Virus record (IMG/VR): IMGVR_UViG_2630968342_000015
Source of the DNA: a virus
Lineage: Duplodnaviria > Heunggongvirae > Uroviricota > Caudoviricetes
DNA length: 14,640 bases
Strand: one strand, 5' to 3'
Below, in pieces: positions 1 through 13,738 of this stretch. The notes below the pieces were generated by a model that made no database searches, had not been told where the DNA came from, and saw nothing but the letters and a program-made list of their open reading frames with translations. Each line of letters starts with the position of its first letter. The stretch's first letter is position 1. A program made the translations under genes and the position numbers.

Positions 1-1218
1 ATGAACAAACTGAGCGATACCTTGCTAAGGAAACTTCATGGTAAGCCAGCGGAGAAAAACACGTTTTATAGTGATGGCGGAAACCTGAGCGTGAAATATT
101 TAACATCAGGGAAATTGACCTGGTATTTCACATACAGGGCCGGAACGGGAAGGGAGACACGACCCGAACGCATTAAGCTGGGAAGTTATCCTGATCTGAG
201 CCTGAAAGCAGCCAGGGAAAAAGCCGCACAGTGTCGCACATGGCTGGCTGAGGGGAAAAATCCACGTCATGAGATGAATTACACCGTACAGGAAGCGTTA
301 AAGCCCGTAACGGTTGGCGATGCGCTCACCTACTGGCTTGAGTATTACGTAAAGGAAAACCGCGTGGATTATATCGCCCTGAAAAGGCGACTTAATAATC
401 ACGTAATACAGCAGATTGGTGCTATGCCGCTGGATAAATGCGAGCTACGGCACTGGCTGGCCTGTTTTGACCAGGTGGCAAAGCGAACGCCTGTTACTGC
501 CGGATTCGTGCTACAGGCGTGCAAACAGGCGCTTAAGTTCTGCCGTAGGCGGCGCTATGCAATCAGCAACGTTCTGGACGATCTGAACGTGGCGGACGTT
601 GGGAAAAAACCGGATATAAGCGAACGTGTCTTAAGTAACAAAGAACTTGGCGAATTATTGCAGGCACTGGACAAAAAAATATTCTCCCCTTACTACGTCG
701 CGTTAATCCGCCTCCTGATTGTCTTCGGAGCCAGAACGGTAGAACTGAGGTTATCGGAGATCGGAGAGTGGGATTTTACGGAAATGCTATGGACCGTTCC
801 GAAGGAGCACAGCAAAACGAAGGTCGCAATATTCCGGCCCATACCGGAAGCGATCCTGCCGTTCGTCACGCAGCTGGTGGAGCAGAACAGGCACACGGGC
901 TTATTGCTGGGGGAAGTGAAACAGGAGGCCAGCGTATCGCAGTATGGAAGATTAGCGCACAGGAGGCTTAATCATCCTCACTGGTCACTGCATGACATCC
1001 GGCGCACCTTTACAACCATGCTGAACGATTTAGGCGTTGATCCGCATGTCGTGGAGCAGCTTACAGGCCACCAGATGCCAGGAATGCAGCGAGTTTATAA
1101 TCATTCCCGTTATCTGGATGCTAAACGCAATGCGCTGGATATGTGGACGGAGCGGTTAGGGATACTGGCGGGAACACATGAAAACGTAACCACGCTACCA
1201 GTAGCCAGAAGAAAATAA
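1..1218 (+). CDS. int: P4-family tyrosine integrase (site-specific recombinase)
   Basis: 405-aa ORF. The N-terminus has the P4-type arm-binding pattern (LSDTLLRKL...FYSDGGNLSVKY...W.FTYR...RIKLGSYPDLSLKAAREKA). The catalytic region has ARTVELR, HDIRRT and a C-terminal tyrosine region (RVYNHSRYLD). Confidence 0.95.
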   Translation: MNKLSDTLLRKLHGKPAEKNTFYSDGGNLSVKYLTSGKLTWYFTYRAGTGRETRPERIKLGSYPDLSLKAAREKAAQCRTWLAEGKNPRHEMNYTVQEALKPVTVGDALTYWLEYYVKENRVDYIALKRRLNNHVIQQIGAMPLDKCELRHWLACFDQVAKRTPVTAGFVLQACKQALKFCRRRRYAISNVLDDLNVADVGKKPDISERVLSNKELGELLQALDKKIFSPYYVALIRLLIVFGARTVELRLSEIGEWDFTEMLWTVPKEHSKTKVAIFRPIPEAILPFVTQLVEQNRHTGLLLGEVKQEASVSQYGRLAHRRLNHPHWSLHDIRRTFTTMLNDLGVDPHVVEQLTGHQMPGMQRVYNHSRYLDAKRNALDMWTERLGILAGTHENVTTLPVARRK

Positions 1219-1235
1219 TTTTTTTCGTGTTTTTT

Positions 1236-1251
1236 CAGTATGCGCATACTG
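1236..1251. repeat. 16-bp perfect palindrome CAGTATGCGCATACTG just downstream of int; function unknown
   Basis: Read directly; the sequence equals its own reverse complement. TATGCG recurs at 1254-1259. Confidence 0.9.
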
Positions 1252-1258
1252 GATATGC

Positions 1259-1310
1259 GAACAGATACAACGTGCAACAATGAGCAACAATGCGGAACAA
1301 CTACGAACAA
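1259..1310 (-). repeat. Array of six TTGTTC-like motifs, five of them on a 10-bp phase (minus-strand orientation); candidate protein-binding array
   Basis: The plus strand reads gaacag/atacaa/caacaa/caacaa/gaacaa/gaacaa, with the last five ending at 1270, 1280, 1290, 1300 and 1310. The reverse complement of 1285-1310 matches 6862-6887 at 22 of 26 positions. Confidence 0.7.
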
Positions 1311-1405
1311 GAGGCGAAAAAGTGTACGGATTTATAAGTAGCTGATTTTTAATGTGTTACTGGTTTTTTATACACTAGCGAATCACTCTTTAAATAGCGA
1401 GAAAA

Positions 1406-1440
1406 AAGGCATGAAACAATATTTTATGCCTTTGTATTAA
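1406..1440 (+). terminator. Hairpin downstream of int; probable int terminator, possibly bidirectional
   Basis: AAGGCATGAAA/TTTTATGCCTT forms an 11-bp stem including one G.U that pairs only in plus-strand RNA, with a 5-nt loop. It is followed by TGTATT on plus. On minus it is followed by a better T-run (TTTTCTC). Confidence 0.5.
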
Positions 1441-1502
1441 CATGAATTTAAATGATTTTATCCTGATTATTCCTCTTTCTGTAAACCATGCGACCTCAAC
1501 AT

Positions 1503-1531
1503 TTGCCAACTCTGAATCATCCTGACACAAT
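1503..1531 (+). promoter_or_regulatory. Candidate sigma70 promoter for alpA (TTGCCA-17 bp-CACAAT)
   Basis: Hexamers and 17-bp spacing read by eye, about 60 bp upstream of the alpA GTG. No other support. Confidence 0.3.
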
Positions 1532-1592
1532 CAGACACATCCCAACGCAATAGAACACGAAATAACTCTTTAAGAAACGAAAGGGGGCAATA

Positions 1593-1781
1593 GTGTTAAG
1601 CACTGATCGGTTTATACGTGAAAAAGAATGCGAAAAGCTAACAGGCCTTAGCCGCTCATGCCGCTACCGCCTGGAAAAGGCCGGACAATTCCCATCACGT
1701 CGTAAACTTAGCGGTCGTTCCGTTGGCTGGTCTTTATCCGAGGTTCTGGCCTGGAAGGATAGCTGCAAGGCAGTTCATTAA
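1593..1781 (+). CDS. alpA: AlpA-family (MerR-like wHTH) regulator/excisionase
   Basis: 62-aa ORF with a GTG start 5 nt after AAGGGGG. Matches the Phage_AlpA pattern (EKLTGLSRSCRYRLEKAGQFPSRRKLSGRSVGWSLSEVLAW). Sits downstream of int as in P4-like islands and PICIs. Confidence 0.85.
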   Translation: MLSTDRFIREKECEKLTGLSRSCRYRLEKAGQFPSRRKLSGRSVGWSLSEVLAWKDSCKAVH

Positions 1782-1927
1782 TCACGCTGGCGGCACGCAG
1801 CCGCCACACATCAATCATCTGAACACAGAGCTATAACCATGAAGATTGAATATACGCCAGAACGTGGGCGGGGATTCGTTCGCCCTGGTGAAACTGAAAA
1901 ACAACAAAATTGGGGTTTTTCAGGTAT

Positions 1928-1956
1928 AAAAAAAGCGGCCCCGAAATGGAGCCGCC
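1928..1956 (-). terminator. Rho-independent terminator for the leftward Arc-like operon
   Basis: Minus strand: GCGGC..GCCGC stem extended by CC/GG, followed by TTTTTTT (plus-strand A-run 1928-1934). Lies about 95 nt past the stop of the 2051-2224 ORF. Confidence 0.6.
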
Positions 1957-2050
1957 TTTCTGAACAGATAACCCGCTGCGCCGTTTGTGTGTGTGATCCC
2001 AAACATAAGCACGGGGATGATAGCCGCTATCAGGCTGGTGGGCAATGCAA

Positions 2051-2224
2051 TCAGTCTGGTTCAGTTCGTTGCCATACCTGCAATGAGCGCTTTTCCCTGT
2101 ACTCTTTAAGGAATTGCTCAAGGGCAAAAGCACATGGTGCGAATCTTTCTGATTCATGCTCTATCTTTCTGCGCCGTCTTTTCCGTGCCGGTGATAATGT
2201 TTTGGTCAATTCTTTATCGGTCAT
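2051..2224 (-). CDS. Hypothetical small basic protein (57 aa), second gene of the Arc-like operon
   Basis: ORF with AGGA 7 nt upstream of the ATG at 2224; the ATG at 2239 lacks a well-spaced SD. Has an RKRRRRK stretch and a helical C-terminus (FALEQFLKEYREKRSL). No family recognised. Confidence 0.4.
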   Translation of the reverse strand: MTDKELTKTLSPARKRRRRKIEHESERFAPCAFALEQFLKEYREKRSLQVWQRTEPD

Positions 2225-2281
2225 TGTGTTGTCCTGCATAGCAATGCGCCGTAATACCTCACACCACGGCGCTGATAGTTT

Positions 2282-2473
2282 TTATCCTTTGGGTTCTATA
2301 CCGCGCCGCTTTAGTTCAGTACGCCCCAACTCTTTAAGCCAGTTGGCTAGGCTTATGCCGTCGCTCTGTGCTTCTTTATCGAATTGCTCTTTTAGCTCTG
2401 GAGAAATTCGCATTCTGAATTGTGGGGATTGCCCGTCCCCTTTAGGGCTTTTATCGCGTTTGATTGTTGACAA
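2282..2473 (-). CDS. Arc/Mnt-family ribbon-helix-helix DNA-binding repressor
   Basis: 63 aa, TTG start with AGGTGA 4 nt upstream. SPQFRMRISPELKEQFDKEAQSDGISLANWLKELGRTELKRRGI aligns by eye with P22 Arc (PQFNLRWPREVLDLVRKVAEENGRSVNSEIYQRVMESFKKEGRI). Confidence 0.65.
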   Translation of the reverse strand: MSTIKRDKSPKGDGQSPQFRMRISPELKEQFDKEAQSDGISLANWLKELGRTELKRRGIEPKG

Positions 2474-2518
2474 GTGGTCACCTATTGAATTAGCCTTTCT
2501 ATTGTTAGGTGGTCACCT
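2474..2518. promoter_or_regulatory. Two copies of GTGGTCACCT (palindromic GGTNACC core), each preceded by ATTGTT; candidate operators
   Basis: Copies at 2474-2483 and 2509-2518, 35 bp apart, in the gap between the leftward RHH gene and the rightward operon. The first copy overlaps the RHH SD. Confidence 0.5.
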
Positions 2519-2534
2519 TAACACAAGAGCACTT

Positions 2535-2578
2535 AAAAAAGCAAAGCCCCGCAAGTGTCATTACCACTCGCAGGGCTT
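2535..2578 (-). terminator. Strong minus-strand rho-independent terminator
   Basis: Arms 2545-2557 and 2565-2577 with a 7-nt loop. Plus-strand RNA has two C.A/A.C mismatches that become G.U wobbles in minus-strand RNA, giving 13 uninterrupted pairs. Followed on minus by TTGCTTTTTT. Confidence 0.7.
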
Positions 2579-2616
2579 CTAACCAACAACGTAAACTAGG
2601 AGCCGTTATGGTTGCT
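2535..2616 (-). ncRNA. Candidate ~80-nt cis-antisense RNA covering the SD and ATG of the Icd-like gene (predicted, unverified)
   Basis: The terminator above, plus an extended -10-like TGGTATATG on minus (plus coordinates 2623-2631). The transcript would be complementary to AGGAG (2598-2602) and the ATG at 2608. Confidence 0.3.
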
Positions 2617-2805
2617 GTAAATCATATACCACACCTTGTACACACACAAACGGCCTTTGTGTGGCGTTTTCTGGCACTGAGTGCCGGAGAATCTCAAATC
2701 ATCCACGTAACCGCCTGGACGGAACGCGAAGCGCGTAGCCGTTGCCCGTCCGGTTGTGTTGCTGTATTCGCCGCCCGTATTCGTCAGGGGGGGTGCCATG
2801 CCTGA
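2608..2805 (+). CDS. Icd-like small protein (P4-type host cell division inhibitor family), first gene of the rightward operon
   Basis: ATG 5 nt after AGGAG; 65 aa. The pattern FVWRFLALSAG...IIHVTAWTEREARSRC...VAVFAARIRQ resembles Icd-like proteins of P4-like prophages, from memory. The ORF-track start at 2509 is an upstream extension. Confidence 0.5.
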   Translation: MVAVNHIPHLVHTQTAFVWRFLALSAGESQIIHVTAWTEREARSRCPSGCVAVFAARIRQGGCHA

Positions 2806-3118
2806 CATGACCAATTACCAGTACCTGATTAATCCGCATTTTAACTGTGAGCATGATATTGCTAAAAAGGTTTATTCCGCTGCGGATGGGGCTACTGACA
2901 ATATATCAATGGCTGTTGCGTCAATTGGTAGCCTGATGTGGCATGCGTCAGAAAATGAGGACTATGACGAAAAGGCCATGCGCATTGATATGGGTAATAT
3001 TGGTTTGTTACTGGCAATGCTTGGACATTTTGATATTTCGTTACGGTGCACCATTGGAAATGCCACAGATGCATTAAATGCTATAAAGAAAGCGAATACT
3101 GATTCAAATCGGGGATAA
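2798..3118 (+). CDS. Hypothetical protein (106 aa)
   Basis: ATG at 2798 follows a G-rich SD and overlaps the previous stop. Ordinary protein-like composition; no family recognised. Confidence 0.6.
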   Translation: MPDMTNYQYLINPHFNCEHDIAKKVYSAADGATDNISMAVASIGSLMWHASENEDYDEKAMRIDMGNIGLLLAMLGHFDISLRCTIGNATDALNAIKKANTDSNRG

Positions 3119-3124
3119 ATAATC

Positions 3125-3424
3125 ATGAGAACGTATTTATCTGGCTTTACTGCCAGCGGTTATGCACACCCCAAAATTATCCCCGGCGCTATTTATCTGG
3201 ATAAGAACGGTAACAGAGTAACGGTAAAAGAACTGATGTTTGACCGTGTGTATTTTATTCGTGATGGCTATTCATTTCATAGTTCGCTGAACGTGGAGAT
3301 CTTTATTAGCAGATTCCGGCGGGAAATCCCGCTTTCCAGAAATAACCATGTGTCATGTATGGATGTTGATAAAAAACTACAGGAACTGAAAAACATGATT
3401 GCCGCGTGGAGAGAGCAGAAATGA
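3125..3424 (+). CDS. Hypothetical protein, possibly DUF4222-like
   Basis: 99-aa ORF. GAIYLDKNGNRVTVKELMFDRVYFIRDGY resembles small DUF4222 proteins found upstream of primases in enterobacterial islands (recall only). Confidence 0.55.
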   Translation: MRTYLSGFTASGYAHPKIIPGAIYLDKNGNRVTVKELMFDRVYFIRDGYSFHSSLNVEIFISRFRREIPLSRNNHVSCMDVDKKLQELKNMIAAWREQK

Positions 3425-5238
3425 AAAAAGCGCCAAATTTAAAACACCAGCCGCGTGACAAAATGACGGAAGTCATCATTTTTGCGGGTAGTGATGCGTG
3501 GGCACATGCGAAGCAGTGGCAGGAACAGGACGGGCGACTGGCTGGCGATAACGTGCCACCTGTCTGGCTTGGAGAGCAACAACTTGCCGAACTGGACAAC
3601 CTGCAAATCGTACCGGACGGACGCTATCGCGTGCGTCTCTACCAGGCGGGGTTATTGCGTCCGGGGCTTGTTAATACCATCGGGCAGAAACTGGCAGCGG
3701 CAGGTGTCAGGGATGCTGATTATTACCCTGAAGGAATGCACAGCCAGAAACGGGAGAACTGGCGCGAATATCTGGAACGTGAGCGGGGAGAGCTGGCGGA
3801 AAAGAAAAAGGTAGTTGAACTGCCTGTAAAGAAAAAAGAGCGGGTAAAAGACGATAACGCTTCATCACTGGCGCTTAACCAGATGGGAGCAAGTCAACGC
3901 GGCGAAGTTCTCCTGGCACATTATGGCGGTGAACTGGCGATTCATGCTGACTCTGACACTGTTCACTATTACAACGGCGTTGTATGGGAGCCAGTACAGG
4001 ATAAAGAATTACAGCGAGCTATGGCGCAGATTTTCATTGATGCGGAGATCAGCTATTCGCAGAACGCCATTAAATCGGCGGTCGATACCATGAAGTTAAG
4101 TTTGCCTGTAATGGGGAATACAGCCCGTAACCTGATTGGATTCAGTAACGGTGTTTTTGATACCCGGACAGGCGATTTTCGGGAGCATAACAAAAACGAC
4201 TGGTTGTTAATTGCCAGTGAATTACCTTTCAGCCCACCAGCAGAGGGGGAAACGCTGGCAACACATGCGCCGAATTTCTGGAAGTGGTTACGCCGTTCGG
4301 TGGCTGAGAATGACCGCAAGGCGGATCGCGTACTGGCTGCATTATTCATGGTGCTGGCGAACCGGTACGACTGGCAGTTATTCATTGAGGTAACAGGTCC
4401 AGGGGGAAGTGGTAAAAGCGTGATGGCGGAGATTTGCACCATGCTGGCGGGTAAGGCCAACACGGTATCGGCAAGCATGAAGGCGCTGGAAGATGCCAGG
4501 GAACGCGCGTTAGTGGTTGGCTTTTCGCTGATTATCATGCCGGATATGACCCGTTACGCTGGTGATGGCGCAGGAATTAAGGCCATTACAGGCGGTGACA
4601 AGGTGGCAATCGACCCGAAGCATAAAGCCCCCTACTCAACACGCATTCAGGCGGTAGTGTTGGCGGTGAACAATAACGCCATGTCATTCAGTGACCGCAG
4701 CGGGGGGATTTCACGTCGTCGGGTGATATTCAATTTTTCGGAGGTTGTACCGGAAAACGAACGCGACCCCATGCTGGCAGAAAAAATAGAAGGAGAGCTG
4801 GCGGTTGTGATTCGCCACCTGCTTACTCGTTTTTCTGACCAGGACGCAGCTAAACGCCTGCTGTATGAGCAGCAGAAATCAGAAGAAGCTCTGGTGATAA
4901 AACGCGAGGGCGATTCGCTGGTGGACTTCTGCGGCTATCTCATGTCGTCGGTAATGTGTGATGGTCTGTTAGTGGGTAATGCCGAAATTATTCCGTTCAG
5001 TCCGCGCAGGTATCTTTATCACGCCTATCTGGCATATATGAGGGCACACGGATTCGGTAAACCTGTAACACTGACGCGCTTCGGTAAAGATATGCCGGGG
5101 GCAATGGCGGAATATGGCAGGGAGTATATGAAACGGAAAACGAAGCACGGTTTGCGTTCAAACGTGACACTGACGGAGGAATCAGAAGACTGGATGCCAT
5201 CATGTGTATCGGTCACTAATGACGATAGCAAAAATTAA
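3421..5238 (+). CDS. P4-alpha/D5-type primase-helicase (SF3 helicase with a C-terminal origin-binding region)
   Basis: ATG at 3421 (GGAGAG 7 nt upstream) overlaps the previous stop. Walker A GPGGSGKS at 4396-4419 and Walker B-like LIIMPD. Overall resembles the P4-family primase C-terminal domain. An iteron origin lies immediately 3'. Confidence 0.9.
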   Translation: MKKAPNLKHQPRDKMTEVIIFAGSDAWAHAKQWQEQDGRLAGDNVPPVWLGEQQLAELDNLQIVPDGRYRVRLYQAGLLRPGLVNTIGQKLAAAGVRDADYYPEGMHSQKRENWREYLERERGELAEKKKVVELPVKKKERVKDDNASSLALNQMGASQRGEVLLAHYGGELAIHADSDTVHYYNGVVWEPVQDKELQRAMAQIFIDAEISYSQNAIKSAVDTMKLSLPVMGNTARNLIGFSNGVFDTRTGDFREHNKNDWLLIASELPFSPPAEGETLATHAPNFWKWLRRSVAENDRKADRVLAALFMVLANRYDWQLFIEVTGPGGSGKSVMAEICTMLAGKANTVSASMKALEDARERALVVGFSLIIMPDMTRYAGDGAGIKAITGGDKVAIDPKHKAPYSTRIQAVVLAVNNNAMSFSDRSGGISRRRVIFNFSEVVPENERDPMLAEKIEGELAVVIRHLLTRFSDQDAAKRLLYEQQKSEEALVIKREGDSLVDFCGYLMSSVMCDGLLVGNAEIIPFSPRRYLYHAYLAYMRAHGFGKPVTLTRFGKDMPGAMAEYGREYMKRKTKHGLRSNVTLTEESEDWMPSCVSVTNDDSKN

Positions 5239-5250
5239 ACTTATGGAATA

Positions 5251-5475
5251 ACTGTTCACCACTGTTCACCCTGTCATAAATATCTTTTGTATCAGTATGT
5301 TATAGGGTGAACAGTTATTTATGAACTGTTCACCAAACTATTCACTGTTCACCTTTTTGATTGTTTATTGAGCTTCAAGGGTGAACAGTGGTGAATAGTT
5401 GGTGAATAGTTTTTGTGAAACTGTTCACCCCTTAATATTATGAATTAAAAGATAAAATATCAAAAGGTGAACAGG
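5251..5475. repeat. Origin of replication: about 11 copies of the 10-bp iteron ACTGTTCACC in both orientations around AT-rich DNA
   Basis: Plus-oriented copies at 5251, 5261, 5325, 5344 and 5420, with a degenerate one at 5337. Inverted copies (GGTGAACAGT/GGTGAATAGT) at 5306, 5380, 5390, 5401 and 5466. AT-rich stretch at 5430-5465. Confidence 0.8.
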
Positions 5476-5525
5476 TGAAGGGTTAAAACGCAAAAATTTT
5501 AATTTACTGCTGTGAGATAAAGCCT

Positions 5526-5771
5526 ATGACAGCGAAGCACACAAAAAAATCACAATCGCACGCCCTTGATTTGACGGAACACTGGTTAAGGGTGTCGATA
5601 AAAATCATCGACCGCAACGCCGGGGAAGGATATGCGAAAGCACATCCCGAACTGATTAGCTCATTCATGACAACGGCAGCTGCAAACTTTGCCACGCTGA
5701 CAGAACGGGAGATTGCCGAAGCGGAACAGGTGACAACCATCAACGTTAAAACCGGAGAGCAGACAGCATGA
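5526..5771 (+). CDS. Hypothetical protein (81 aa)
   Basis: ORF whose stop overlaps the ssb start (ATGA). No family recognised. Confidence 0.55.
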   Translation: MTAKHTKKSQSHALDLTEHWLRVSIKIIDRNAGEGYAKAHPELISSFMTTAAANFATLTEREIAEAEQVTTINVKTGEQTA

Positions 5772-6178
5772 CAGCACAGATAGCAGCTTACGGGCGGCTG
5801 GTGGACGACCCGCAGGTAAAACAGACCAGTAAGGGCACACCGATGACGCTGGCGCGTATGGCGGTATCGTTGCCATGTAGTCAGGCGCAGGATGGGCAGG
5901 CGACGTTATGGCTATCGGTCATCGCATTTGGTAAGCAGGCCGACTTCCTGGCTAAACATCAAAAAGGCGACGTTGCCAGCGTATCCGGCACGATGCAGGT
6001 CAGCCAGTGGACCGGACAGAACGGGGAAACGCGGCAGGGTTATCAGGTTATTGCAGACAGCGTAATCAGTGCCCGTGCGGCACGTCCTGGCGGGAACAGA
6101 CGCAAAACCACAGGCACACAGGGTAATCAGCCACCAGCGGGAGGCGATGACCCTTACGGTGACGGTATTCCGTTCTGA
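5768..6178 (+). CDS. ssb: Single-stranded DNA-binding protein
   Basis: 136 aa. OB-fold-like N-terminus (YGRLVDDPQVKQTSKGTPMT...ATLWLSVIAFGKQA), Gly/Pro/Gln-rich linker, and the canonical acidic C-terminal tip DDPYGDGIPF. Confidence 0.85.
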   Translation: MTAQIAAYGRLVDDPQVKQTSKGTPMTLARMAVSLPCSQAQDGQATLWLSVIAFGKQADFLAKHQKGDVASVSGTMQVSQWTGQNGETRQGYQVIADSVISARAARPGGNRRKTTGTQGNQPPAGGDDPYGDGIPF

Positions 6179-6188
6179 GGGGGTGGCG

Positions 6189-6461
6189 ATGGTACATGAC
6201 CGCATAGCGGAAGAACTCGAGGCGAAAGGCTTTTACCGGAGGGCGGCGGCGCGATGGGGTGAAGTCATGCTGCTGGTGGAGACAGACAAGGAACGGCATC
6301 AGGTTACGATGCGACGGCTGGAATGTTCCAGGAAGGCACAGAAGCCACCGGAGCCGCCGGATAACTTCGGAGACCTGAGAAAGGCAGTAGATCGCACTTA
6401 TGCTGAAATGGGTATAGATGGTGTAAGCGATGAAATATGGCGTAATTACCCAGACAGCTAA
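6189..6461 (+). CDS. PerC-family-like transcriptional regulator
   Basis: ATG at 6189 after GAGGGGG; 90 aa. The N-terminal AEELEAKGFYRRAAARWGEVM resembles the PerC/Pch family signature (recall only). Confidence 0.5.
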   Translation: MVHDRIAEELEAKGFYRRAAARWGEVMLLVETDKERHQVTMRRLECSRKAQKPPEPPDNFGDLRKAVDRTYAEMGIDGVSDEIWRNYPDS

Positions 6462-6465
6462 TCAA

Positions 6466-6490
6466 CAGCCGGAGAAATCCGGCTTTTTTT
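6466..6490 (+). terminator. Rho-independent terminator
   Basis: AGCCGGA-GAAA-TCCGGCT followed by seven T. Confidence 0.85.
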
Positions 6491-6585
6491 GCACCAGTTG
6501 AAACGGTATGGCGCATTACCGGGTTTTCGTCACGGTCAGGCATAGTTACTATCTGAAACAAACAGACACAACAGAGGAAAAAACA

Positions 6586-6810
6586 ATGCCGATGAAATTT
6601 GATGAGATATTAAAACAGCGTGATAAATACCATGCTGACAACATGGAGACGATGAGCATCAATGATTACCGCGCATTCCTGGAGACGGGCGCACTGATTG
6701 AAAAGGATCAGCATGGTTTTGTGAGATGTGCTCTGTCCGGTGAAATGCTGGCGGTAAATCCTGAACAGATAGATGCATTGATAGAATTTCTGAAAGGGAT
6801 CAGGGACTGA
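6586..6810 (+). CDS. Hypothetical protein (74 aa), moron-like cassette
   Basis: ATG at 6586, 8 nt after AGAGGA. Flanked by two near-identical terminators. Confidence 0.55.
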   Translation: MPMKFDEILKQRDKYHADNMETMSINDYRAFLETGALIEKDQHGFVRCALSGEMLAVNPEQIDALIEFLKGIRD

Positions 6811-6819
6811 GCACGCATA

Positions 6820-6843
6820 CAGCCGGAGCAATCCGGCTTTTTG
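6820..6843 (+). terminator. Rho-independent terminator (near-duplicate of 6466-6490)
   Basis: AGCCGGA-GCAA-TCCGGCT followed by TTTTT. Confidence 0.85.
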
Positions 6844-6861
6844 TCATTTTTTGTAAATTAT

Positions 6862-6896
6862 TTGTTCGTGGTTGTTCCACGTTGTTCACTGACAGG
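6862..6896 (+). repeat. Three TTGTTC motifs on a 10-bp phase upstream of the head operon; candidate activator/Rep-binding site and promoter region
   Basis: TTGTTC at 6862, 6872 and 6882. The 15-mer TTGTTCCACGTTGTT (6872-6886) recurs exactly at 14374-14388. A possible -10 TATTTT lies at 6904-6909. Confidence 0.65.
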
Positions 6897-6964
6897 ATCG
6901 GCATATTTTACCCGAACTGAATCATGAGTATTCTCGCCCGTGGTGCCAGGACGCTGGGGCCACT

Positions 6965-7010
6965 TTCCCGCCTGTTAATGTGCTCGCCAATATTCATTAC
7001 CAGGCGGGAA
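6965..7010 (+). other. Long-range 10-bp inverted repeat in the head-operon leader
   Basis: TTCCCGCCTG (6965-6974) pairs perfectly with CAGGCGGGAA (7001-7010) across a 26-nt loop. Confidence 0.6.
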
Positions 7011-7064
7011 AACGATCGGTGCGATTGCTGATTTCCTTATGAAAAACGGTTGAGTTTTTGCCGC

Positions 7065-7102
7065 GTCCTGGAGTTCCTTACTTAACCCCAGGACTTTTTT
7101 TT
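7065..7102 (+). terminator. Intrinsic terminator directly abutting the capsid start codon
   Basis: GTCCTGGAGTT/AACCCCAGGAC gives an 11-bp stem with one mismatch and an 8-nt loop. It is followed by eight T (7095-7102) and then the ATG at 7103. Confidence 0.75.
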
Positions 7103-8260
7103 ATGCCGAGAATAATCGAATTACGCCAGCAGAAAACCGCCATTAAAAATCAGATGCGCGACATGCTGGAGAACGCGGAAAAAGAAAACCGCAGCCTTAA
7201 CGATGCAGAGGGCGCAAAATTTGACGAATTACGCGCTAAAGCTGAATCCCTCGATAAAGACATTTCCCGCCTTGAAGCCATTGCAGACGAAGAGCGCAGC
7301 AAGCCAGGTAAAAGCAGCCAGACCACTGACCCGGCAGAACTCCGCAACTACATCCTGACAGGTGAAACCCGCGCATTAAGTACAGGCGTTCCCGCTGATG
7401 GTGGTTATACCGTTATCCCCGAACTGAACACCGAAATCATGCGAATGCTGACGGATGAATCCACCATGCGCCGCATCTGTACCGTGAAGAAAATCAGCAG
7501 CAACGAGTTTAAGCAGCTTGTTTCCGCTGGCGGTGCGACCGTTAACCACGGTGAAGAGGGTAAGACACGCGAACAGACCAGCACCCCGCAGATTAACGAG
7601 GTGAGCATTAAGCTGTATCCGGTCTATGCGTACCCGCGCACCACACAGGAAATCGTGGATTTTTCCGATGTGGACATCCTTTCATGGCTGACGGGTGAGA
7701 TTGGCGACACCTTCACGGAAACCGAAGAAAGCGATCTGGTTGTGGGCGACGGTGACAAAAAAGCAAAAGGTTTTTTATCCGTACCCCGTGCAGAGAAGAA
7801 CGACAAAGAGCGTGATTTTGGTACGTTGCAGGTAATTAAACCTTCCGAATCTCTGGCGTGGACATCTGCGGACCCGCTGATCGACCTGAAATTTGCATTA
7901 CGTAAAAAATACCGCAAAAACGCGGTCTGGGTGGTTAACTCCACGACGGCGGCAAAACTTCAGAAGGTGAAGAACGCGAACGGTGATTACATCTGGCGCG
8001 ACCGTTTACAGGCGGGTGATCCTGATACGTTGCTGGGCCTTCCGGTCGAATATCTGGAGTTTATGCCTGATAACGTTATTGCCCTGGGTGACTTCAAACG
8101 CGGTTACTACATTGTTGATCACGAAACAGGTGTTCGCACCAGACCGGACAACCTCACAGAGCCGGGCTTCATCAAAATTTTCACGCAGAAATATTTAGGC
8201 GGTGGCGTGGTGGATTCGAACGCGATCAAGATTCTGGAACTGCCACAGGACGACGATTAA
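7103..8260 (+). CDS. HK97-family major capsid protein with an N-terminal delta/scaffold-like coiled coil
   Basis: The N-terminus MPRIIELRQQKTAIKNQMRDMLENAEKENRSLNDAEGAKFDELRAKAESLDKDISRLE is typical of HK97-type MCP delta domains. The body has GGYTVIPE... and ...LVVGDGDKKAKGFL motifs. Confidence 0.9.
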   Translation: MPRIIELRQQKTAIKNQMRDMLENAEKENRSLNDAEGAKFDELRAKAESLDKDISRLEAIADEERSKPGKSSQTTDPAELRNYILTGETRALSTGVPADGGYTVIPELNTEIMRMLTDESTMRRICTVKKISSNEFKQLVSAGGATVNHGEEGKTREQTSTPQINEVSIKLYPVYAYPRTTQEIVDFSDVDILSWLTGEIGDTFTETEESDLVVGDGDKKAKGFLSVPRAEKNDKERDFGTLQVIKPSESLAWTSADPLIDLKFALRKKYRKNAVWVVNSTTAAKLQKVKNANGDYIWRDRLQAGDPDTLLGLPVEYLEFMPDNVIALGDFKRGYYIVDHETGVRTRPDNLTEPGFIKIFTQKYLGGGVVDSNAIKILELPQDDD

Positions 8261-8270
8261 CAGCATACAG

Positions 8271-8299
8271 AAGGGGCTTAAAAGCCCCTTTAGTGTTTT
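8271..8299 (+). terminator. Hairpin with an interrupted U-tract after the capsid gene; probable partial terminator or attenuator
   Basis: AAGGGGCT-TAAA-AGCCCCTT (8-bp stem) followed by TAGTGTTTTA. Confidence 0.5.
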
Positions 8300-8314
8300 A
8301 TGGGTGAAAAAATT

Positions 8315-8872
8315 ATGAAGAGTATGGAAATCCGGTCATCGGAAATCACCACCAGCGCCAGCAACACGCTTACAGGCTACGTTGTTCGCTGGGATAAGCT
8401 TTCAGAGCTGCTATGGGGGGAGTTTTACGAAAAATTCCAGCGGGGAGCGTTTACTGAATGGCTTGCGGCGGGTAATGACGTTCGCGGCCTGTATGAGCAT
8501 GACCACAGCATGTTGCTGGGGCGTACCCGTTCCGGCACGCTGAAACTGGAAGAGGACGAAACAGGGTTACGCTTTGAACTGACCCCACCGGATACCAGTA
8601 CAGGGCGCGACGTTATCGAACTGGTTAAGCGTGGGGACATCTCGGGGATGAGCTTTGGCTTTCGCTCCCGTAAGGATGTATGGGATACCACAACAGATCC
8701 ATGCGTGCGCACCGTGCTGGTGGCGGAACTGTACGAAATTACCGTTACATCGGTACCGGCTTACCCTGATTCCGGCGTGGAGCTGGCCCGCCGTTCCCTG
8801 TATGAGCAGCACCCCGAAAAAATGCCGCGTGCGGATAATCGCCGCTGGTGGGTGGATTTAGCGGGGGTGTGA
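8315..8872 (+). CDS. HK97-family prohead protease (peptidase S78/U35)
   Basis: Family-typical pattern MEIRS...LTGYVVRWDKLSE...FQRGAF...DVRGLYEHD...LGRTRSGTLKLEEDETGLRFELTPPDTSTGRDVIELVKRGDISGMSFGF. The start is uncertain (8300, 8315 or 8324). Confidence 0.9.
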   Translation: MKSMEIRSSEITTSASNTLTGYVVRWDKLSELLWGEFYEKFQRGAFTEWLAAGNDVRGLYEHDHSMLLGRTRSGTLKLEEDETGLRFELTPPDTSTGRDVIELVKRGDISGMSFGFRSRKDVWDTTTDPCVRTVLVAELYEITVTSVPAYPDSGVELARRSLYEQHPEKMPRADNRRWWVDLAGV

Positions 8873-8873
8873 T

Positions 8874-10085
8874 ATGTGGCTTTTCAGAAGAAAAAAAGAG
8901 CAGCGCAGCATGACGCTTGATGAATTTATGGCGCTGGCTGGCACATCGAACACGGGGGCGGGTGAGTACGTATCATCGGGGACAGCGGAATCACTGCCCG
9001 CCGTCATGAACGCCGTGACGGTCATCTCTGAGGCGGTGGCTACCATGCCGTGTTACCTGTACCTGGTACGCAATGAGAAGGGGAAGGAGGCCCGCGAGTG
9101 GCTTGATTCTCATCCGGTCGATCACATCCTCAACGAGCGCCCGAACGCGTGGCAGACTCCCTACCAGTTTAAGCGAATGATGATCCGCCACTGCCTGTTA
9201 AACGGTAATGCTTATGCGGTGATTCAGTGGGGGCGTGATGGTTTTCCGGTGGCTTTACATCCTTACCCGCCGCAGTCGGTGAACGTGGAGCAGACAGGCG
9301 AACACAACTGGCGCTACTGCATCACTGACGCCTACACCGGAAACACCCGCAACTATTTACCGTGGGAGGTTCTCCACCTTCGTTACTCCACGGATGACGG
9401 TTTTATGGGGCGCTCACCTGTAACCATCTGCCGCGAATCGCTGGGGCTTGGGCTGGCCCAACAACGCCACGGCGCGAGCGTGATGCGTGATGGCATGATG
9501 GCGGCAGGGGTTATCACGTCAGGCGAATGGCTGGACGGCGTGAAGGGCAAACAGGCATTAGCCGCACTGGAACGCTACAAAGGGGCCAGAAACGCCGGAA
9601 AAACGCCCATCCTTGAAGGGGGTATGAGCTATCAGCAGCTGGGCATGAGTAATCAGGATGCTGAATGGCTGGCCTCCCGTCGCTTCACCATTGAAGACAT
9701 CGCCCGAATGTTCAACGTCTCGCCGATTTTTCTGCAGGAATACAGCAACAGCACCTACAGCAATTTCAGCGAGGCAAGCCGCGCATTTCTCACCATGACA
9801 ATGCGCCCGTGGCTGGCGAACTTTGAGCAGCAGATAAAAAACGCCCTGCTGGTGGCCTCGCCTGTACCTGGTATCCGGTATCAGGTGGAGTTTGACAGCG
9901 CGGACCTGTTACGGGCCACACCTGGCGAACGCTTTGCCACCTATGAACGCGGCATCAAATCCGGCGTTATGTGCCCGAACGAAGCCCGCGAACGTGAAGG
10001 GCTGTCCCCGCGTGATGGTGGTGATGAGTTCAGCCAGGCATGGAAACAGGAAGTAAAAATCAGCGAGGGAGAAAAACCGGAATGA
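8874..10085 (+). CDS. HK97-family portal protein
   Basis: 403-aa ORF with the size and overall sequence character of Phage_portal family proteins. SD GGGGG lies 6 nt upstream. Sits within the head module. Confidence 0.85.
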   Translation: MWLFRRKKEQRSMTLDEFMALAGTSNTGAGEYVSSGTAESLPAVMNAVTVISEAVATMPCYLYLVRNEKGKEAREWLDSHPVDHILNERPNAWQTPYQFKRMMIRHCLLNGNAYAVIQWGRDGFPVALHPYPPQSVNVEQTGEHNWRYCITDAYTGNTRNYLPWEVLHLRYSTDDGFMGRSPVTICRESLGLGLAQQRHGASVMRDGMMAAGVITSGEWLDGVKGKQALAALERYKGARNAGKTPILEGGMSYQQLGMSNQDAEWLASRRFTIEDIARMFNVSPIFLQEYSNSTYSNFSEASRAFLTMTMRPWLANFEQQIKNALLVASPVPGIRYQVEFDSADLLRATPGERFATYERGIKSGVMCPNEAREREGLSPRDGGDEFSQAWKQEVKISEGEKPE

Positions 10086-10420
10086 ACATAGGGCGACTGC
10101 GTGACAGGGTAACGATTCAGACCCTGAAACAGACCAGGGATATAACCGGCGAAATACTCGAAACGTGGGAGGACGGTCACACACTCTGGGCAAGCGTGAA
10201 CATGATCAGCAGCAAGGAGGCCATTTCATCGGGTGCAGAGCTGGCGATTGGTACCGTAAGGATCTGGATACGGTACCGGAAGGACATCAATGCCACCAGC
10301 CGGATAAAGGTCAGTACGGGGCCGCTGGCGGGGCGTGTACTGAATATCATCGGGCAGCCGCTGCCGGATGCCGCCAGGACACGCCTTGAAATTCTTTGTC
10401 GTGAGGGCGCGGAAAAATGA
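10082..10420 (+). CDS. Head-closure / head-tail adaptor protein (SPP1 gp16-like, Phage_H_T_join)
   Basis: ATG at 10082 overlaps the portal stop (ATGA). MNIGRLRDRVTIQ...WEDGHTLWASV...IRYRKDI...ILCREG is the typical family pattern. Confidence 0.8.
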   Translation: MNIGRLRDRVTIQTLKQTRDITGEILETWEDGHTLWASVNMISSKEAISSGAELAIGTVRIWIRYRKDINATSRIKVSTGPLAGRVLNIIGQPLPDAARTRLEILCREGAEK

Positions 10421-10713
10421 CAGAAGAACTTATCACCCTGGAAGAAGTGAAACTCCATTGCCGCATCGATGGCGACGAGGAAGACCAGTTAATCAGCGGA
10501 TACATCGCCGCATCGCTTGAGGCGTGCCAGATACACATAGGCAGGCGCTTTGATGACGGGCTGGAGTTCACGCCAGCCATAAAGATTGGCTGCATGATGT
10601 TTATCGCTCACCTGTATGAAAATCGCCAGATTGTCGCGGATAACGCAAAAACACGCGTACCCATGACGATTGGTGCACTCTGGACGGCTTACCGTGATGT
10701 GGGGGTGTACTGA
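10417..10713 (+). CDS. gp6-like head-tail connector protein (Phage_connect_1)
   Basis: ATGA overlap with the previous gene. ITLEEVKLHCRIDGDEEDQLISGYIAASLEACQIHIGRRF is the family-typical N-terminus. Confidence 0.8.
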   Translation: MTEELITLEEVKLHCRIDGDEEDQLISGYIAASLEACQIHIGRRFDDGLEFTPAIKIGCMMFIAHLYENRQIVADNAKTRVPMTIGALWTAYRDVGVY

Positions 10714-11153
10714 TGCCGTGGCAACCATTAAGACGATGCACAGAACCAGGCTGTAACAGGCGCGTGAAGTCCGGCAAGTGTGAGGAGCACAGGCGGGCGG
10801 CATGGCGTGCAGAGGATGCCAGACGAGGACACCGCCGCGCGCGTGGGTACTCCAGACAGTGGGACAAATACCGCGCCATGTATCTGAGTAAAAACCCGTT
10901 ATGCGTGCGATGCCTTGAGAAGGGGATATATACGCCCGCCGTGGTGGTGGATCACATTATCCCGATTAATGGCGGTGATGATGTTCTCTTCTGGCCCGAA
11001 TGGAACCATCAGCCATTGTGCCAGGCGTGCCATAACCAGAAAACGAAATGGCTTGATCCGGCAACAAAAAGCAAGCGTGCCGCAGGTGGATTTCGTGAAG
11101 AGGAAGAACGGGCCGCTAACCGCAATAACTGGATGTATGACGCTGATGAATGA
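10713..11153 (+). CDS. Phage HNH endonuclease (packaging-associated)
   Basis: N-terminal Cys cluster CTEPGCNRRVKSGKCEEH and HNH core DHIIPINGGDD...NHQPLCQACHNQKT. Sits upstream of terS as in HK97-like cos phages. Confidence 0.9.
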   Translation: MPWQPLRRCTEPGCNRRVKSGKCEEHRRAAWRAEDARRGHRRARGYSRQWDKYRAMYLSKNPLCVRCLEKGIYTPAVVVDHIIPINGGDDVLFWPEWNHQPLCQACHNQKTKWLDPATKSKRAAGGFREEEERAANRNNWMYDADE

Positions 11154-11319
11154 GCGGGAACAAAACCGCCTTATCCGTGGACTTATAAGGCAGCGTGACG
11201 CATGGAAGACACAGGAAACAGGGCATAAAGATAAAGCGTCAGGACGCGCAGAACGCATCACAGCGAAGCGATTAACCGACCGTGACCGCGAGGTTATGGA
11301 ATGTTTCCGCAATCGCTGA
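11146..11319 (+). CDS. Possible small charged protein (57 aa) in the HNH-terS gap
   Basis: ATG at 11146 overlaps the HNH stop (ATGAATGA). It is the only open frame across 11153-11319. No clear SD and no family recognised. Confidence 0.3.
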   Translation: MNEREQNRLIRGLIRQRDAWKTQETGHKDKASGRAERITAKRLTDRDREVMECFRNR

Positions 11320-11441
11320 TGAGGCTGTATGACGGGGTGGGGGGCGTTTTCAGGACAAACCCGACCCCGCCGGGCACCGACCGCCTCCTCAAATTTTTAT
11401 GCACGGGAATTTTTTGAAAAATAATCTGACGAAAAATAAGC
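11320..11441. other. Candidate cos region
   Basis: Lies between HNH and terS, the HK97-like position for cos. G-rich (11331-11346) and C-rich (11361-11389) segments are partly complementary and are followed by AT-rich DNA. Positional inference only. Confidence 0.35.
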
Positions 11442-11798
11442 ATGGCAAGACCACCGAAAGCCCCCGCCTACCTGGATGACATCGCCGTGAAGCAGTGGCG
11501 GGAAAAATCGCGGCAGCTTGCGGAACGGGGAGACCTGACCCCCGCCGACTGGAGCAATCTGGAACTGTATTGTGTCAACTACTCCATTTACCGGAAAGCC
11601 GTCGCAGACCTTGCGGCGCGCGGGTTCAGCATTGTTAACAGTCAGGGCGGCGAGAGCAGAAACCCCGCATTAAGCGCGAAATCAGACGCTGAAAGGGTGA
11701 TGATAAAAATGGCCTCCTTGCTCGGTTTTGACCCGATAAGCCGCCGTAAAAACCCACCGGAAACAGAAGAAGAGGACGAGCTTGACCGCCTGGAATAA
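11442..11798 (+). CDS. terS: Terminase small subunit, P27 family
   Basis: Family-typical pattern PPKAPAYLDDIAVKQWREKSRQLAERGDLTPADWSNLELYCVNYSIYRKA...NPALSAKSDAERVMIKMASLLGFDPISRRK. Confidence 0.85.
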   Translation: MARPPKAPAYLDDIAVKQWREKSRQLAERGDLTPADWSNLELYCVNYSIYRKAVADLAARGFSIVNSQGGESRNPALSAKSDAERVMIKMASLLGFDPISRRKNPPETEEEDELDRLE

Positions 11799-13443
11799 GT
11801 ACGCAGAAGACGTAAAAACGGGCAAAATTCAGGCCTGTAAACGGTTAAAACAGGCCGTTAAACGGTACTTTTCGGACCTTAAAAGCCCCCTTTACACGTT
11901 CGATCGTGAGGTTGTGGATCGGTTTATTGCCTTTTCCAGGGTGTGCCCGCACGTAAAAGGGCCGATGCGTGGCAGACCCATTGAGCTGGAGCCGTGGCAG
12001 CAGTTCGCCTTTGCGTGCATCCTCGGCTTTAAGGTTAAGGCCACCGGACGGCGCAAATATACGAGCGCCTTTATCGAAGTGCCGCGCAAAAATGCTAAAT
12101 CAACGACCGCCGCGATTCTGGCTAACTGGTTTCTGATTATGGAGAACGGTCAGCAGGATATTTACACCGCAGCGGTGAGCCGTGACCAGGCGAGGATCGT
12201 ATTTGATGATGCGCGTCAGATGTGCATTTTATCCCGACCGTTACGCAGGCGGGTGAATATTCAGGCGCATAAGGTGATACACCCGAAAACCAACAGCCTG
12301 TTAAAGCCGCTGGCAGCAAAAGCGGCAACTATCGAGGGCACAAACCCCAGTCTTTCTATCGTGGACGAATACCACCTACACCCCGACAACGGCGTATATT
12401 CTGCGCTTGAACTGGGGATGGGGGCACGTCCCGAAGGGCTGTTATTTGCCATTACCACATCGGGAAGTAACGTCGTTTCAGCCTGTAAGCAGCATTATGA
12501 TTATTGCTGCCAGATCCTGGACGGCGAAGAGGTTAACGAATCGCTTTTTGTGCTGATTTACGAACTGGACGACGAAAACGAGGTTGATGATCCGGAGATG
12601 TGGATAAAGGCGAACCCTAATATCGATGTTTCCGTGGATCGTGAAAAACTGGCCTCAACCATTCAGAAAGCGCGGGGTATTCCGTCGCAATGGGTGGAGA
12701 TGATGACAAAGCGATTTAATATCTGGTGTCAGGGGACTACCCCGTGGATGGGTAATGGTGCATGGGCTGAGTGTGCCGGAACGTTCACGGAGGAAGATTT
12801 ACACGGTCAGGAGTGTTACGCGGGGCTGGACTTATCATCAACCAGCGATATTTCCAGCGTGTGCTATGCCTTTCCGGTCGGTAAAACCATTATGATGATT
12901 TCCCGTCATTATCTGCCGGAGTTCCAGCTACAGAACCCCGCCAATAAAAACCGCGCTGTCTATCGTCAGTGGGCTAAAGCAGGCTGGATACGCACAACGC
13001 CTGGCGACTGCATTGATTACGACCGGATCAGAGATGACATCATGCAGGACGCGGAGAAATTTAATATCAGGCTGGTGGGCTTTGATACGTGGAACGCCAC
13101 GCATCTCAGAACGCAATTACAGGGGGCAGGTTTTGAGGTGGAGCCGTTCCCGCAAACCTACCTCAGATTCAGTCCGGCGGCGAAATCGTTCGAAGTTTTT
13201 GTTAACCGCAGGGTGATTGTGCATCGTGGCGATCCGGTGTTGTCCTGGTCGATGAGTAACGTCGTGATGCAGAGTGACGCGAACGCCAATATCAAGCCGA
13301 ACAAGAAAAAATCACCGAACAAGATAGACCCGAGCGTGGCGGCGCTGATGGCGTTTGGTACATTCCAGGCAGAGCATGAGGATTTTGCTTTTGATATAAG
13401 CGACAGCCACCGCCAGAAACTGGAAGAATTTAGCGGGGTGTAA
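11782..13443 (+). CDS. terL: Terminase large subunit (Terminase_1 family)
   Basis: 553 aa. TTG start with GAGGA 5 nt upstream; no ATG or GTG is available between the upstream in-frame stop and 11782. Walker A-like VPRKNAKST and Walker B-like LSIVDEYH. Confidence 0.9.
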   Translation: MTAWNKYAEDVKTGKIQACKRLKQAVKRYFSDLKSPLYTFDREVVDRFIAFSRVCPHVKGPMRGRPIELEPWQQFAFACILGFKVKATGRRKYTSAFIEVPRKNAKSTTAAILANWFLIMENGQQDIYTAAVSRDQARIVFDDARQMCILSRPLRRRVNIQAHKVIHPKTNSLLKPLAAKAATIEGTNPSLSIVDEYHLHPDNGVYSALELGMGARPEGLLFAITTSGSNVVSACKQHYDYCCQILDGEEVNESLFVLIYELDDENEVDDPEMWIKANPNIDVSVDREKLASTIQKARGIPSQWVEMMTKRFNIWCQGTTPWMGNGAWAECAGTFTEEDLHGQECYAGLDLSSTSDISSVCYAFPVGKTIMMISRHYLPEFQLQNPANKNRAVYRQWAKAGWIRTTPGDCIDYDRIRDDIMQDAEKFNIRLVGFDTWNATHLRTQLQGAGFEVEPFPQTYLRFSPAAKSFEVFVNRRVIVHRGDPVLSWSMSNVVMQSDANANIKPNKKKSPNKIDPSVAALMAFGTFQAEHEDFAFDISDSHRQKLEEFSGV

Positions 13444-13456
13444 TGAGGTCAGCAGC

Positions 13457-13738
13457 ATGACAGAAGCCGAAATAACGGGATTAATCCGCCGCGTTGCCGG
13501 AATCAGCCAGCAGGCTGACGAACAGGCCACGCAGCCGGACAGCGTGACAGCCGAAAACTATGCGCGTGTTGTTGCTGAGGTGATGCGCCGTGATGGTATA
13601 GAACTTAATGGCGTGGATATGCGCAACATACGAACCAGAGTTCTTGAGTTGCTGGCCTACCGTCGCCGCGTGGAGATGTATCGGGAGAAGGAGAAAATAA
13701 CGTACCACTGGAAGAAGCCGGAGCGGTTGCGGCGGTAA
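13457..13738 (+). CDS. Hypothetical protein (93 aa), last gene of the packaging operon
   Basis: GAGGT 7 nt upstream of the ATG. Protein-like composition; no family recognised. Confidence 0.6.
   Translation: MTEAEITGLIRRVAGISQQADEQATQPDSVTAENYARVVAEVMRRDGIELNGVDMRNIRTRVLELLAYRRRVEMYREKEKITYHWKKPERLRR

Follow-up and report, generated by a model that had tools for sequence, protein, structure and literature searches.

Proteobacterial phage-inducible chromosomal islands of the capsid-forming type (cf-PICIs) were published with their morphogenesis genes in the order 'capsid-protease-portal-head connectors', followed by 'hnh-terS-terL', and the founding preprint (Alqurainy et al., 10.1101/2022.09.08.507074) called the layout of the O157:H7 prototype, EcCIEDL933 (CP-933C), an 'unusual genetic organisation'. 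The same preprint lists the genes of Firmicutes cf-PICIs as 'portal, protease and capsid', before or after hnh-terS-terL, and reports independent origins. The EcCIEDL933 packaging genes 1786-1794 have been mutated singly, which abolished transfer each time except for 1792, where transfer was severely reduced. According to the published work on the prototype (among it He et al., preprint 10.1101/2025.02.11.637232), it has a T=4 capsid and requires nothing but tails from its helper. The SatelliteFinder paper describes the core gene organisation of cfPICI as 'very conserved', and a 2026 paper (Nat Commun, PMC13230959) reports a gene order conserved between cf-PICIs and a plasmid-borne relative in Vibrio. 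Near-identical cf-PICIs have also been reported with different adaptor/connector genes, matched to different helper tails. Here we compare these systems with a 14,640-nucleotide stretch of DNA, IMG/VR virus record IMGVR_UViG_2630968342_000015 (hereafter, the window), in which an earlier note had read the nine genes at 7103-13443 as an HK97-like head module in scrambled order.

We are highly confident that these genes form the capsid-and-packaging operon of a known Escherichia coli satellite, an EcCIEDL933-type cf-PICI, with an inherited, family-fixed order for which we propose an expression scheme. The head-gene order of the window is already known and published. New here are the evolutionary depth of part of that order, the later and variable arrangement of the connector genes, and related elements in Alteromonas.

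The operon and the element that carries it

All nine genes lie on the + strand, and Pfam and PHROGs both back their identification. The major capsid protein (MCP) gene (7103-8260; HK97 fold with an N-terminal delta domain; PF05065 Phage_capsid, 2.6e-61) is followed by genes for the S78 prohead serine protease (8300-8872; PF04586 Peptidase_S78, 4.4e-48, and RefSeq annotation) and the portal (8874-10085; PF04860 Phage_portal, 9.1e-91, and PDB portal homologues). Two connector genes come next. The head closure protein Hc1, HK97 gp7-like, is encoded at 10082-10420 (PF05521 Phage_HCP, 5.2e-23; PHROG 25 'head closure Hc1', 1.5e-34), and its residues 1-112 of 112 match PDB 2KZ4 (E 5.3e-70); the head-tail adaptor Ad1, HK97 gp6-like, is encoded at 10417-10713 (PF05135 Phage_connect_1, 8.4e-12; PHROG 40 'head-tail adaptor Ad1', 7.9e-36). 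The HNH endonuclease (10713-11153; PF01844; PHROG 144, 8.1e-45) belongs to the HNH-TerS-TerL cos-packaging machine, together with the small terminase TerS of the P27/Terminase_4 family (11442-11798; PF05119, 1.3e-23) and the large terminase TerL, an ATPase and nuclease with a TTG start (11782-13443; PF03354 and PF20441, and RefSeq annotation). Between HNH and terS lies a small conserved open reading frame (ORF) of 60 amino acids (11137-11319; PHROG 3173, 7.5e-37; RefSeq WP_000174068.1), also present in the O157:H7 element. From its position, taking the MCP gene as 1786, we infer that it is the homologue of the EcCIEDL933 hypothetical gene 1792. The nine ORFs are all intact and conserved in dozens of species, and their coordinates are those of the RefSeq calls at a 100%-identical E. 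coli G1/2 locus.

The junction sequences bear out the overlaps that the earlier note had pointed to, ATGA between portal and Hc1 at 10082 and between Hc1 and Ad1 at 10417, and TGATG between Ad1 and HNH at 10713. Overlaps of 17 nt join HNH to the small ORF and terS to terL, and protease and portal are separated by a single nucleotide (TGAtATG), with no overlap. The annotated protease start at 8300 has no ribosome-binding motif; the ATG at 8315 has GGGTGA 6 nt upstream and fits the MKNDFEIR N-termini of relatives better, so that the true protease start may be 8315.

The window is 100% DNA-identical to the E. coli G1/2 locus, where the island splits tqsA, and the module was matched in 538 of 5,426 complete E. 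coli genomes, in every case on the chromosome. The comparison with the prototype was made with Sakai and other O157:H7 genomes in place of the EDL933 record itself: O157:H7 strains (Sakai, 86-24 and others) match 7000-13500, the full query, at 97.9-98.2% DNA identity, and the gene order in Sakai is identical. The strain of the window and Sakai have RefSeq accessions in common for MCP (WP_001137345.1), Ad1, the small ORF, TerS, SSB and PerC. MCP residues 1-385, the full length, match PDB 9GYI (E 6.9e-257), an entry with four chains, as many as there are MCP copies in the asymmetric unit that was described for the T=4 capsid of EcCIEDL933. The residues D257, K290, D295, E319 and R345, mutated in the published study of that capsid, are all present in the window MCP with the same numbering. 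Given the ~98% DNA identity and the shared MCP accession, helper induction, small capsids and dependence on the helper for tails only probably carry over from EcCIEDL933.

The remainder of the element agrees with this identification. The whole element is co-directional (ORF listing and Pfam), and its left end encodes a tyrosine integrase (1-1218; Phage_integrase and Arm-DNA-bind_3), an AlpA regulator (1593-1781; PF05930, 1.9e-17) and a D5/primase-family replication protein (3406-5238; Pfam), as is characteristic of cf-PICIs, with several small genes, SSB and a PerC-family regulator besides. The element encodes its own MCP, protease, portal, adaptor/connector, HNH, TerS and TerL, all intact and in the published order. 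No tail, holin or lysis family was found among the window ORFs with Pfam and PHROGs, and there is no tRNA and no credible Rfam family anywhere in the window. The element measures ~13.7 kb, counted from int through its final gene, within the ~10-15 kb of cf-PICIs, and the split tqsA flanks it. A functional HK97-like prophage would show the canonical order followed by tail and lysis modules; here the order differs and those genes are absent. Nothing contradicts the identification as a cf-PICI.

The nine packaging genes and their order are those of EcCIEDL933, whereas the two elements differ at the other end. The island of the window sits in tqsA and that of O157:H7 Sakai between roxA and phoQ, the integrase alleles differ, a D5/primase-family gene stands where Sakai has a gene for a DUF927 protein, and some small genes differ too. 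The window is an EcCIEDL933-type cf-PICI with a swapped integration and replication end. Set against the O157:H7 element (L087:1309-8462), window positions 1-6500 thus represent a modularly exchanged left half beside a shared packaging half. A candidate for control of the capsid operon is the PerC-family transcriptional activator, encoded just upstream of it (6189-6461).

Gene order in satellites and true phages

HK97, taken as the baseline, runs terS, terL, portal, protease, MCP, Ad1 (gp6), Hc1 (gp7) and tail genes. Against it, the portal/protease/MCP trio is reversed in the window and the connectors are swapped, with all genes on one strand. When the two are compared as circular maps, only the HNH-cos-terS-terL neighbourhood is retained, and no rotation interconverts the orders. 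The same Pfam models identify HK97 gp6 as Phage_connect_1 and gp7 as Phage_HCP, and therefore the connector swap is real; with PHROGs in agreement, the family assignments of 10082-10420 and 10417-10713 are not reversed. The description in the earlier note thus holds: a co-directional order that departs from HK97, is no circular permutation of it, and has both portal and MCP and the two connectors exchanged.

HK97 and the nearest phages (Pseudomonas VW-6S, Yersinia YeP1, Shigella SfIV) share the protein families of the window, namely a Terminase_4 TerS, TerL, HK97-type portal, S78 protease, delta-domain HK97-fold MCP, Ad1, Hc1 and HNH. However, they carry them as terS, terL, portal, protease, MCP, Ad1, Hc1 and tail genes, whereas the window has its head genes upstream of HNH and no tail or lysis genes, and protein identities to the nearest phages are 30-40%. 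Among 50,697 phage records, the best true-phage matches reach 37-40% identity for MCP, 35.5% for portal and 35.9% for TerL, and the best-scoring phages are VW-6S, a Ralstonia phage and Brucella BiPBO1, respectively. VW-6S, the best full-length phage match to the MCP, has the canonical order, as do YeP1, SfIV and vB_EcoM-689R6, judged by match coordinates.

Close relatives give a different picture. Scanning one genome per species yielded 80 loci with 60-98% MCP identity, mainly in Xenorhabdus, Photorhabdus, Proteus, Providencia, Serratia, Erwinia, Pantoea, Kosakonia, Enterobacter, Citrobacter, Gilliamella and Frischella. In other species, from Enterobacterales and Orbales, MCP precedes protease and protease precedes portal in 66/66 loci holding all three, and all 58 loci that are complete through terL are collinear with the window. 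Two satellite-sized 'phage' records, vB_KppS-Ant and Pasteurella Pmp8, have the same order. This layout is fixed in the gammaproteobacterial cf-PICI lineage and does not stem from a rearrangement in this element. The idea of an anomaly of this locus is therefore lost, since the order is the norm among its closest relatives, in the sense that satellites share it; the nearest true phages, at 30-40% identity, are canonical.

Single Xenorhabdus genomes (L016-L060) carry many separate copies of the module, with 4-6 each in X. innexi, X. anantnagensis and X. mauleonii, and one contig (L022) holds two MCP-protease pairs. The 106.5-kb record 'Klebsiella phage P12620-1' (PQ569648.1; L005) has a cf-PICI-like gene set at its end (terS, terL, int, MCP, protease, portal, Hc1, Ad1 and HNH) and looks like a chimeric or concatenated assembly. 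'Escherichia phage ECO95 1-6-1' (1.6 kb, host ATCC 43895) was considered as a piece of EcCIEDL933 and dropped, because its best genomes are non-O157 and point to another cf-PICI lineage.

The connectors are less constant than the trio. Hc1 stands before Ad1 in Pasteurella Pmp8 and in the loci from Enterobacterales and Orbales, but not in Vibrio. Among 60 loci that span portal to HNH, 51 have both connectors, 8 have Ad1 only and 1 has neither. The Ad1-only cf-PICIs come from scattered genera (L017, L028, L066, L069, L070, L077, L080 and L082) and have a portal-HNH gap of ~300 nt; in the locus that lacks both genes (L064) the gap is 31 nt. Compared with the window, Hc1 is 38% identical in vB_KppS-Ant and 24% in Pmp8, against 62% and 43% for Ad1, and the Vibrio element shows no detectable Hc1 match and an Ad1 identity of 38%. 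The greater divergence of Hc1 between lineages fits the published adaptor/connector variation matched to helper tails. We infer from these sequences that the swap arose through loss and re-insertion of Hc1, or its replacement, at a different junction and not by transposition. The swap is narrower in spread than the trio order and would be a separate, later event.

How deep does the trio order reach? A HMMER scan of 1.84 billion cluster representatives recovered cf-PICI MCP clusters at 57-76% identity, then a gap, beyond which two clusters (P0126 and P0128) gave full-length matches at ~40%, followed by a crowd at <=40%. A diverse alignment of 16 MCP sequences held no stretch conserved enough for scanning. 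The relatives of P0126 are marine contigs, with MCP-protease-portal in all 12 of the loci that cover the region downstream of the protease, and exact-sequence look-ups led to Alteromonas, including the isolate Alteromonas sp. RKMC-009. Two Alteromonas loci span the whole element. One (L096, 1-9789) contains an integrase, replication genes, MCP, protease, portal, HNH and TerS, and the other (L097, 6974-17689) has the same content but with HNH not identified; TerL and connector genes are absent from both. The Alteromonas islands (L088-L100) are chromosomal, ~10-11 kb long and have an MCP ~40% identical to that of the window, and one portal variant occurs on 225 contigs, Tara Oceans contigs among them. 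We found no description of these islands in the papers searched, and they may be an undescribed satellite type. The marine VEIMEs were rejected as an identification, since these elements are reported to lack major capsid genes.

The other cluster, P0128, gave no match in viral or metagenome contigs as a single query, and its context was taken from a cluster member (P0271). It belongs to an element in a metagenome-assembled genome of Vibrio hibernica (L186:508-6227, and L187) with MCP, protease, portal, Ad1, Hc1, HNH, TerS and TerL, an arrangement intermediate between HK97 and enterobacterial cf-PICIs. The Vibrio capsid-forming satellites, that is this element and the cf-PISP TG54 of V. crassostreae (PMC13230959), resemble the window in the trio, connectors, HNH, TerS and TerL, but have the canonical Ad1 before Hc1, and their MCP identity to the window is ~38-40%. 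TG54 is a plasmid, not an island (PMC13230959).

In the next MCP clades (relatives of P0131 and P0155), portal precedes MCP in 67/67 loci, and Ad1 precedes Hc1 wherever both connectors were detected. In a tree of 79 MCPs, made by neighbour joining (NJ) and not by maximum likelihood, with outgroups picked by MCP similarity, the cf-PICIs, P0128 and the Alteromonas clade grouped together in 99% of 200 bootstraps. Alteromonas portals score 272-343 bits against 211 bits for the best phage portal, and TerL scores 382 bits in Vibrio and 454 bits in one Alteromonas locus (L098) against 281 bits for the best phage. A caveat on common origin is the Vibrio portal, which at 206 bits is no closer to the window than the best phage portal. 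We tentatively suggest, with more doubt than conviction, that MCP-protease-portal is a shared derived marker of one old gammaproteobacterial satellite capsid lineage, and that the Hc1/Ad1 swap came later, with exchange of the tail-docking cassette. Such a lineage may span the cf-PICIs of Enterobacterales, Pasteurellales and Orbales, the Vibrio capsid-forming satellites and the Alteromonas islands.

Non-coding sequence around the operon

Sequence, a terminator scan, repeats and folding together define a non-coding leader/promoter region of the morphogenesis operon at 6811-7102 on the + strand. A terminator-like hairpin in it (6821-6838) closes the upstream module. A small conserved gene (6586-6810; PHROG 1957) is flanked by near-identical terminator-like hairpins at 6465-6488 and 6819-6842 (ACAGCCGGAG[A/C]AATCCGGCTTTTT), spaced 354 nt apart. 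About 100 nt before the MCP start lies a 17-nt inverted repeat (6964-6980/6995-7011; TTTCCCGCCTGTTAATG / CATTACCAGGCGGGAAA) with 94% complementarity, a candidate operator or leader hairpin. A further hairpin, GTCCTGG and CCAGGAC around a 16-nt loop (~7066-7094), is followed by T8 and the MCP ATG, with no Shine-Dalgarno motif, and looks like a terminator or a structure masking the ribosome-binding site. The fold of the MCP leader (z = -1.72) is not clearly better than that of shuffled sequences, and we claim no leader structure.

This leader, including the hairpin, occurs only in the EcCIEDL933 type, and the leaders of other cf-PICIs are different. One of these, shared by many cf-PICIs and strongly conserved, lies ~130 nt upstream of the MCP start (GTGGCACTCAGACGTGAGCCGCCAC ... 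GGCCGTTTAA...TTAAACGGCC ... CTGGTTTCACGTCT ... GGAAACC-ACT-CCATG), contains several apparent hairpins and could be a regulatory RNA. It occurs in loci L002, L005, L007-L011, L013-L015, L020, L022, L026, L041, L061, L062, L065-L068 and L070, and also in L073-L075, L077-L080 and L082-L085.

The 122 nt between the small ORF and terS (11320-11441; GGGGTGGGGGG ... CCGCCTCCTCAAATTTTTATGCACGG ... ATTTTTTGAAAAATA) are strongly conserved across 59 distinct family sequences and are among the family's most conserved non-coding stretches. The linear, virion-derived record of vB_KppS-Ant opens with terS, has its other end past the small ORF, and lacks ~73 nt in exactly this region. Conservation and these record ends together point to a cos site, which probably lies within 11320-11441; the packaged map would begin with terS-terL and end with the head genes and HNH. 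The record ends were rejected as exact cos ends, because the ~73 missing nucleotides are conserved, so that the ends only bracket the site. In the left half, just downstream of the primase gene, iterons (GGTGAACAG / CTGTTCACC) lie densely and in both orientations at 5232-5474, and the array is the probable replication origin of the island. Weak miRNA-like Rfam matches at 5232-5474 merely reflect the long inverted repeat.

Why is the capsid gene first?

A terminator-like hairpin with an interrupted T tract lies directly 3' of the MCP stop codon on the + strand (8270-8299, stem 8270-8291), where the earlier note had placed a partial terminator. Its stem has 9 bp, 5 of them G-C, and is followed by AGTGTTTTAT. 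The minimum free energy is -17.3 kcal/mol (z = -3.08), and 0/200 shuffles fold as well. A hairpin is kept within ~15 nt of the MCP stop in 65/73 distinct family sequences, with 28 stem variants; it is G+C-rich with a core of AGGGGC...GCCCCTTT, the GGGG/CCCC is nearly invariant, and the Proteus stem is much longer.

We propose that a promoter in 6840-7100 drives all nine genes as a single transcription unit. The hairpin would lower read-through past MCP or, as an RNA-stabilising 3' hairpin, protect the MCP message, to the same effect, and the overlapping stop and start codons may couple translation of the downstream genes. The expected demand is for an excess of MCP: a T=4 shell with one portal vertex would need ~235 copies, the portal and connectors ~12 each, and the packaging enzymes would act catalytically. 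In the cf-PICI layout the hairpin would set MCP apart from all other genes. The products would build a small T=4 HK97-fold capsid, whose MCP the S78 protease cleaves, with a portal and with two connectors that dock tails stolen from the helper phage. HNH-TerS-TerL would cut and package the island at a cos site of its own, situated between the small ORF and terS. The genes past the hairpin are essential, and termination there can therefore only be partial, unless there is an internal promoter.

That MCP-first order and a partial terminator yield excess capsid protein is plausible, but several observations weigh against the scheme. The + strand consensus scan found no sigma-70 promoter, internal promoters included. 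The U tract is short and interrupted, a few family members lack the hairpin, and covariation in the stem is weak because the core is conserved in sequence; RNAalifold on 63 post-MCP sequences returned 3 pairs only, with MAFFT subgroups out of register and an invariant core, and we claim no covariation. HK97 has an annotated putative terminator directly 3' of its MCP gene despite its canonical order, so the hairpin alone does not explain why MCP comes first, and capsid excess is weakened as an explanation of the re-ordering. VW-6S has a strong hairpin at the same place, and in most Alteromonas elements the MCP and protease genes are hardly spaced at all and no hairpin is present. The hairpin seems to have accompanied the MCP gene for a long time and to have moved along with it.

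So, was the order selected, or is it an accident? Selection for descending copy number, with polarity and the post-MCP attenuator setting the stoichiometry of a compact satellite operon, is possible but rather doubtful. The order does track the copy numbers inferred for a T=4 capsid, the genes are tightly packed and overlapping, the hairpin at the MCP/protease boundary is widespread, and the order holds down to ~40% MCP identity in Vibrio and Alteromonas elements. Yet HK97 and VW-6S have the hairpin and still place portal first, the Alteromonas elements mostly do without it, and Firmicutes cf-PICIs (the Bacillus/Clostridium/Staphylococcus and Lactococcus/Enterococcus groups), which share lifestyle and gene content with the window, have portal-protease-capsid in the published text, unlike the window, so that small satellite capsids do not require MCP first. 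A frozen accident, in which one ancestral rearrangement or an unsampled phage ancestor set an order that overlaps and co-adapted parts then locked, comes just short of an even call. It agrees with the single clade of cf-PICI, Vibrio and Alteromonas MCPs that have the order in common and with the canonical neighbouring clades, and the three stop/start overlaps past the portal would make later shuffling costly. However, strict conservation over such divergence is compatible with selection too, and within the clade the connector genes changed order or were exchanged, which means that the operon is not immovable.

Two further explanations carry little weight beside an inherited order. A recent mosaic, in which MCP, portal and terminase from different phages were joined non-canonically, is very improbable, even though the best-scoring true phage differs for each of the three proteins. 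Those matches are 30-40% identical, where rank means little, and YeP1 and SfIV are listed for MCP as well as for portal. For MCP, for portal and for TerL alike, the same set of reversed-order satellites comes closer than any of the phage records, and the scores of the Alteromonas portals and of the Vibrio and L098 TerL indicate that the genes travel together. The mosaic origin raised in the earlier note is thus disfavoured by sequence comparison. Least credible of all, and close to negligible, is a decayed, rearranged cryptic prophage remnant without function of its own, the older 'CP-933C' reading. Homologues in other genomes bear names such as 'capsid protein of prophage CP-933C', and the element has no tail or lysis genes, but all nine ORFs are intact, with conservation in dozens of species, the prototype module works experimentally according to published genetics, which refutes this reading for the prototype, and its capsid structure has been solved.

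The locus is a near-copy of the best-studied capsid-forming satellite, and its 'scrambled' order needs no special local explanation. Published work already implies that a functional HK97-type head is possible from genes out of assembly order, and that phage head synteny, near-universal as it is, is no mechanical requirement. The points added here, the depth of the trio order, the variability and later date of the connector arrangement, and Alteromonas elements without TerL, are modest, and could aid annotation pipelines in telling satellites from prophages and help to date the origin of the satellite capsid module. If MCP-protease-portal does mark one old lineage, gene order alone would separate satellite from phage capsid modules, and the head module would have been captured once, not repeatedly.

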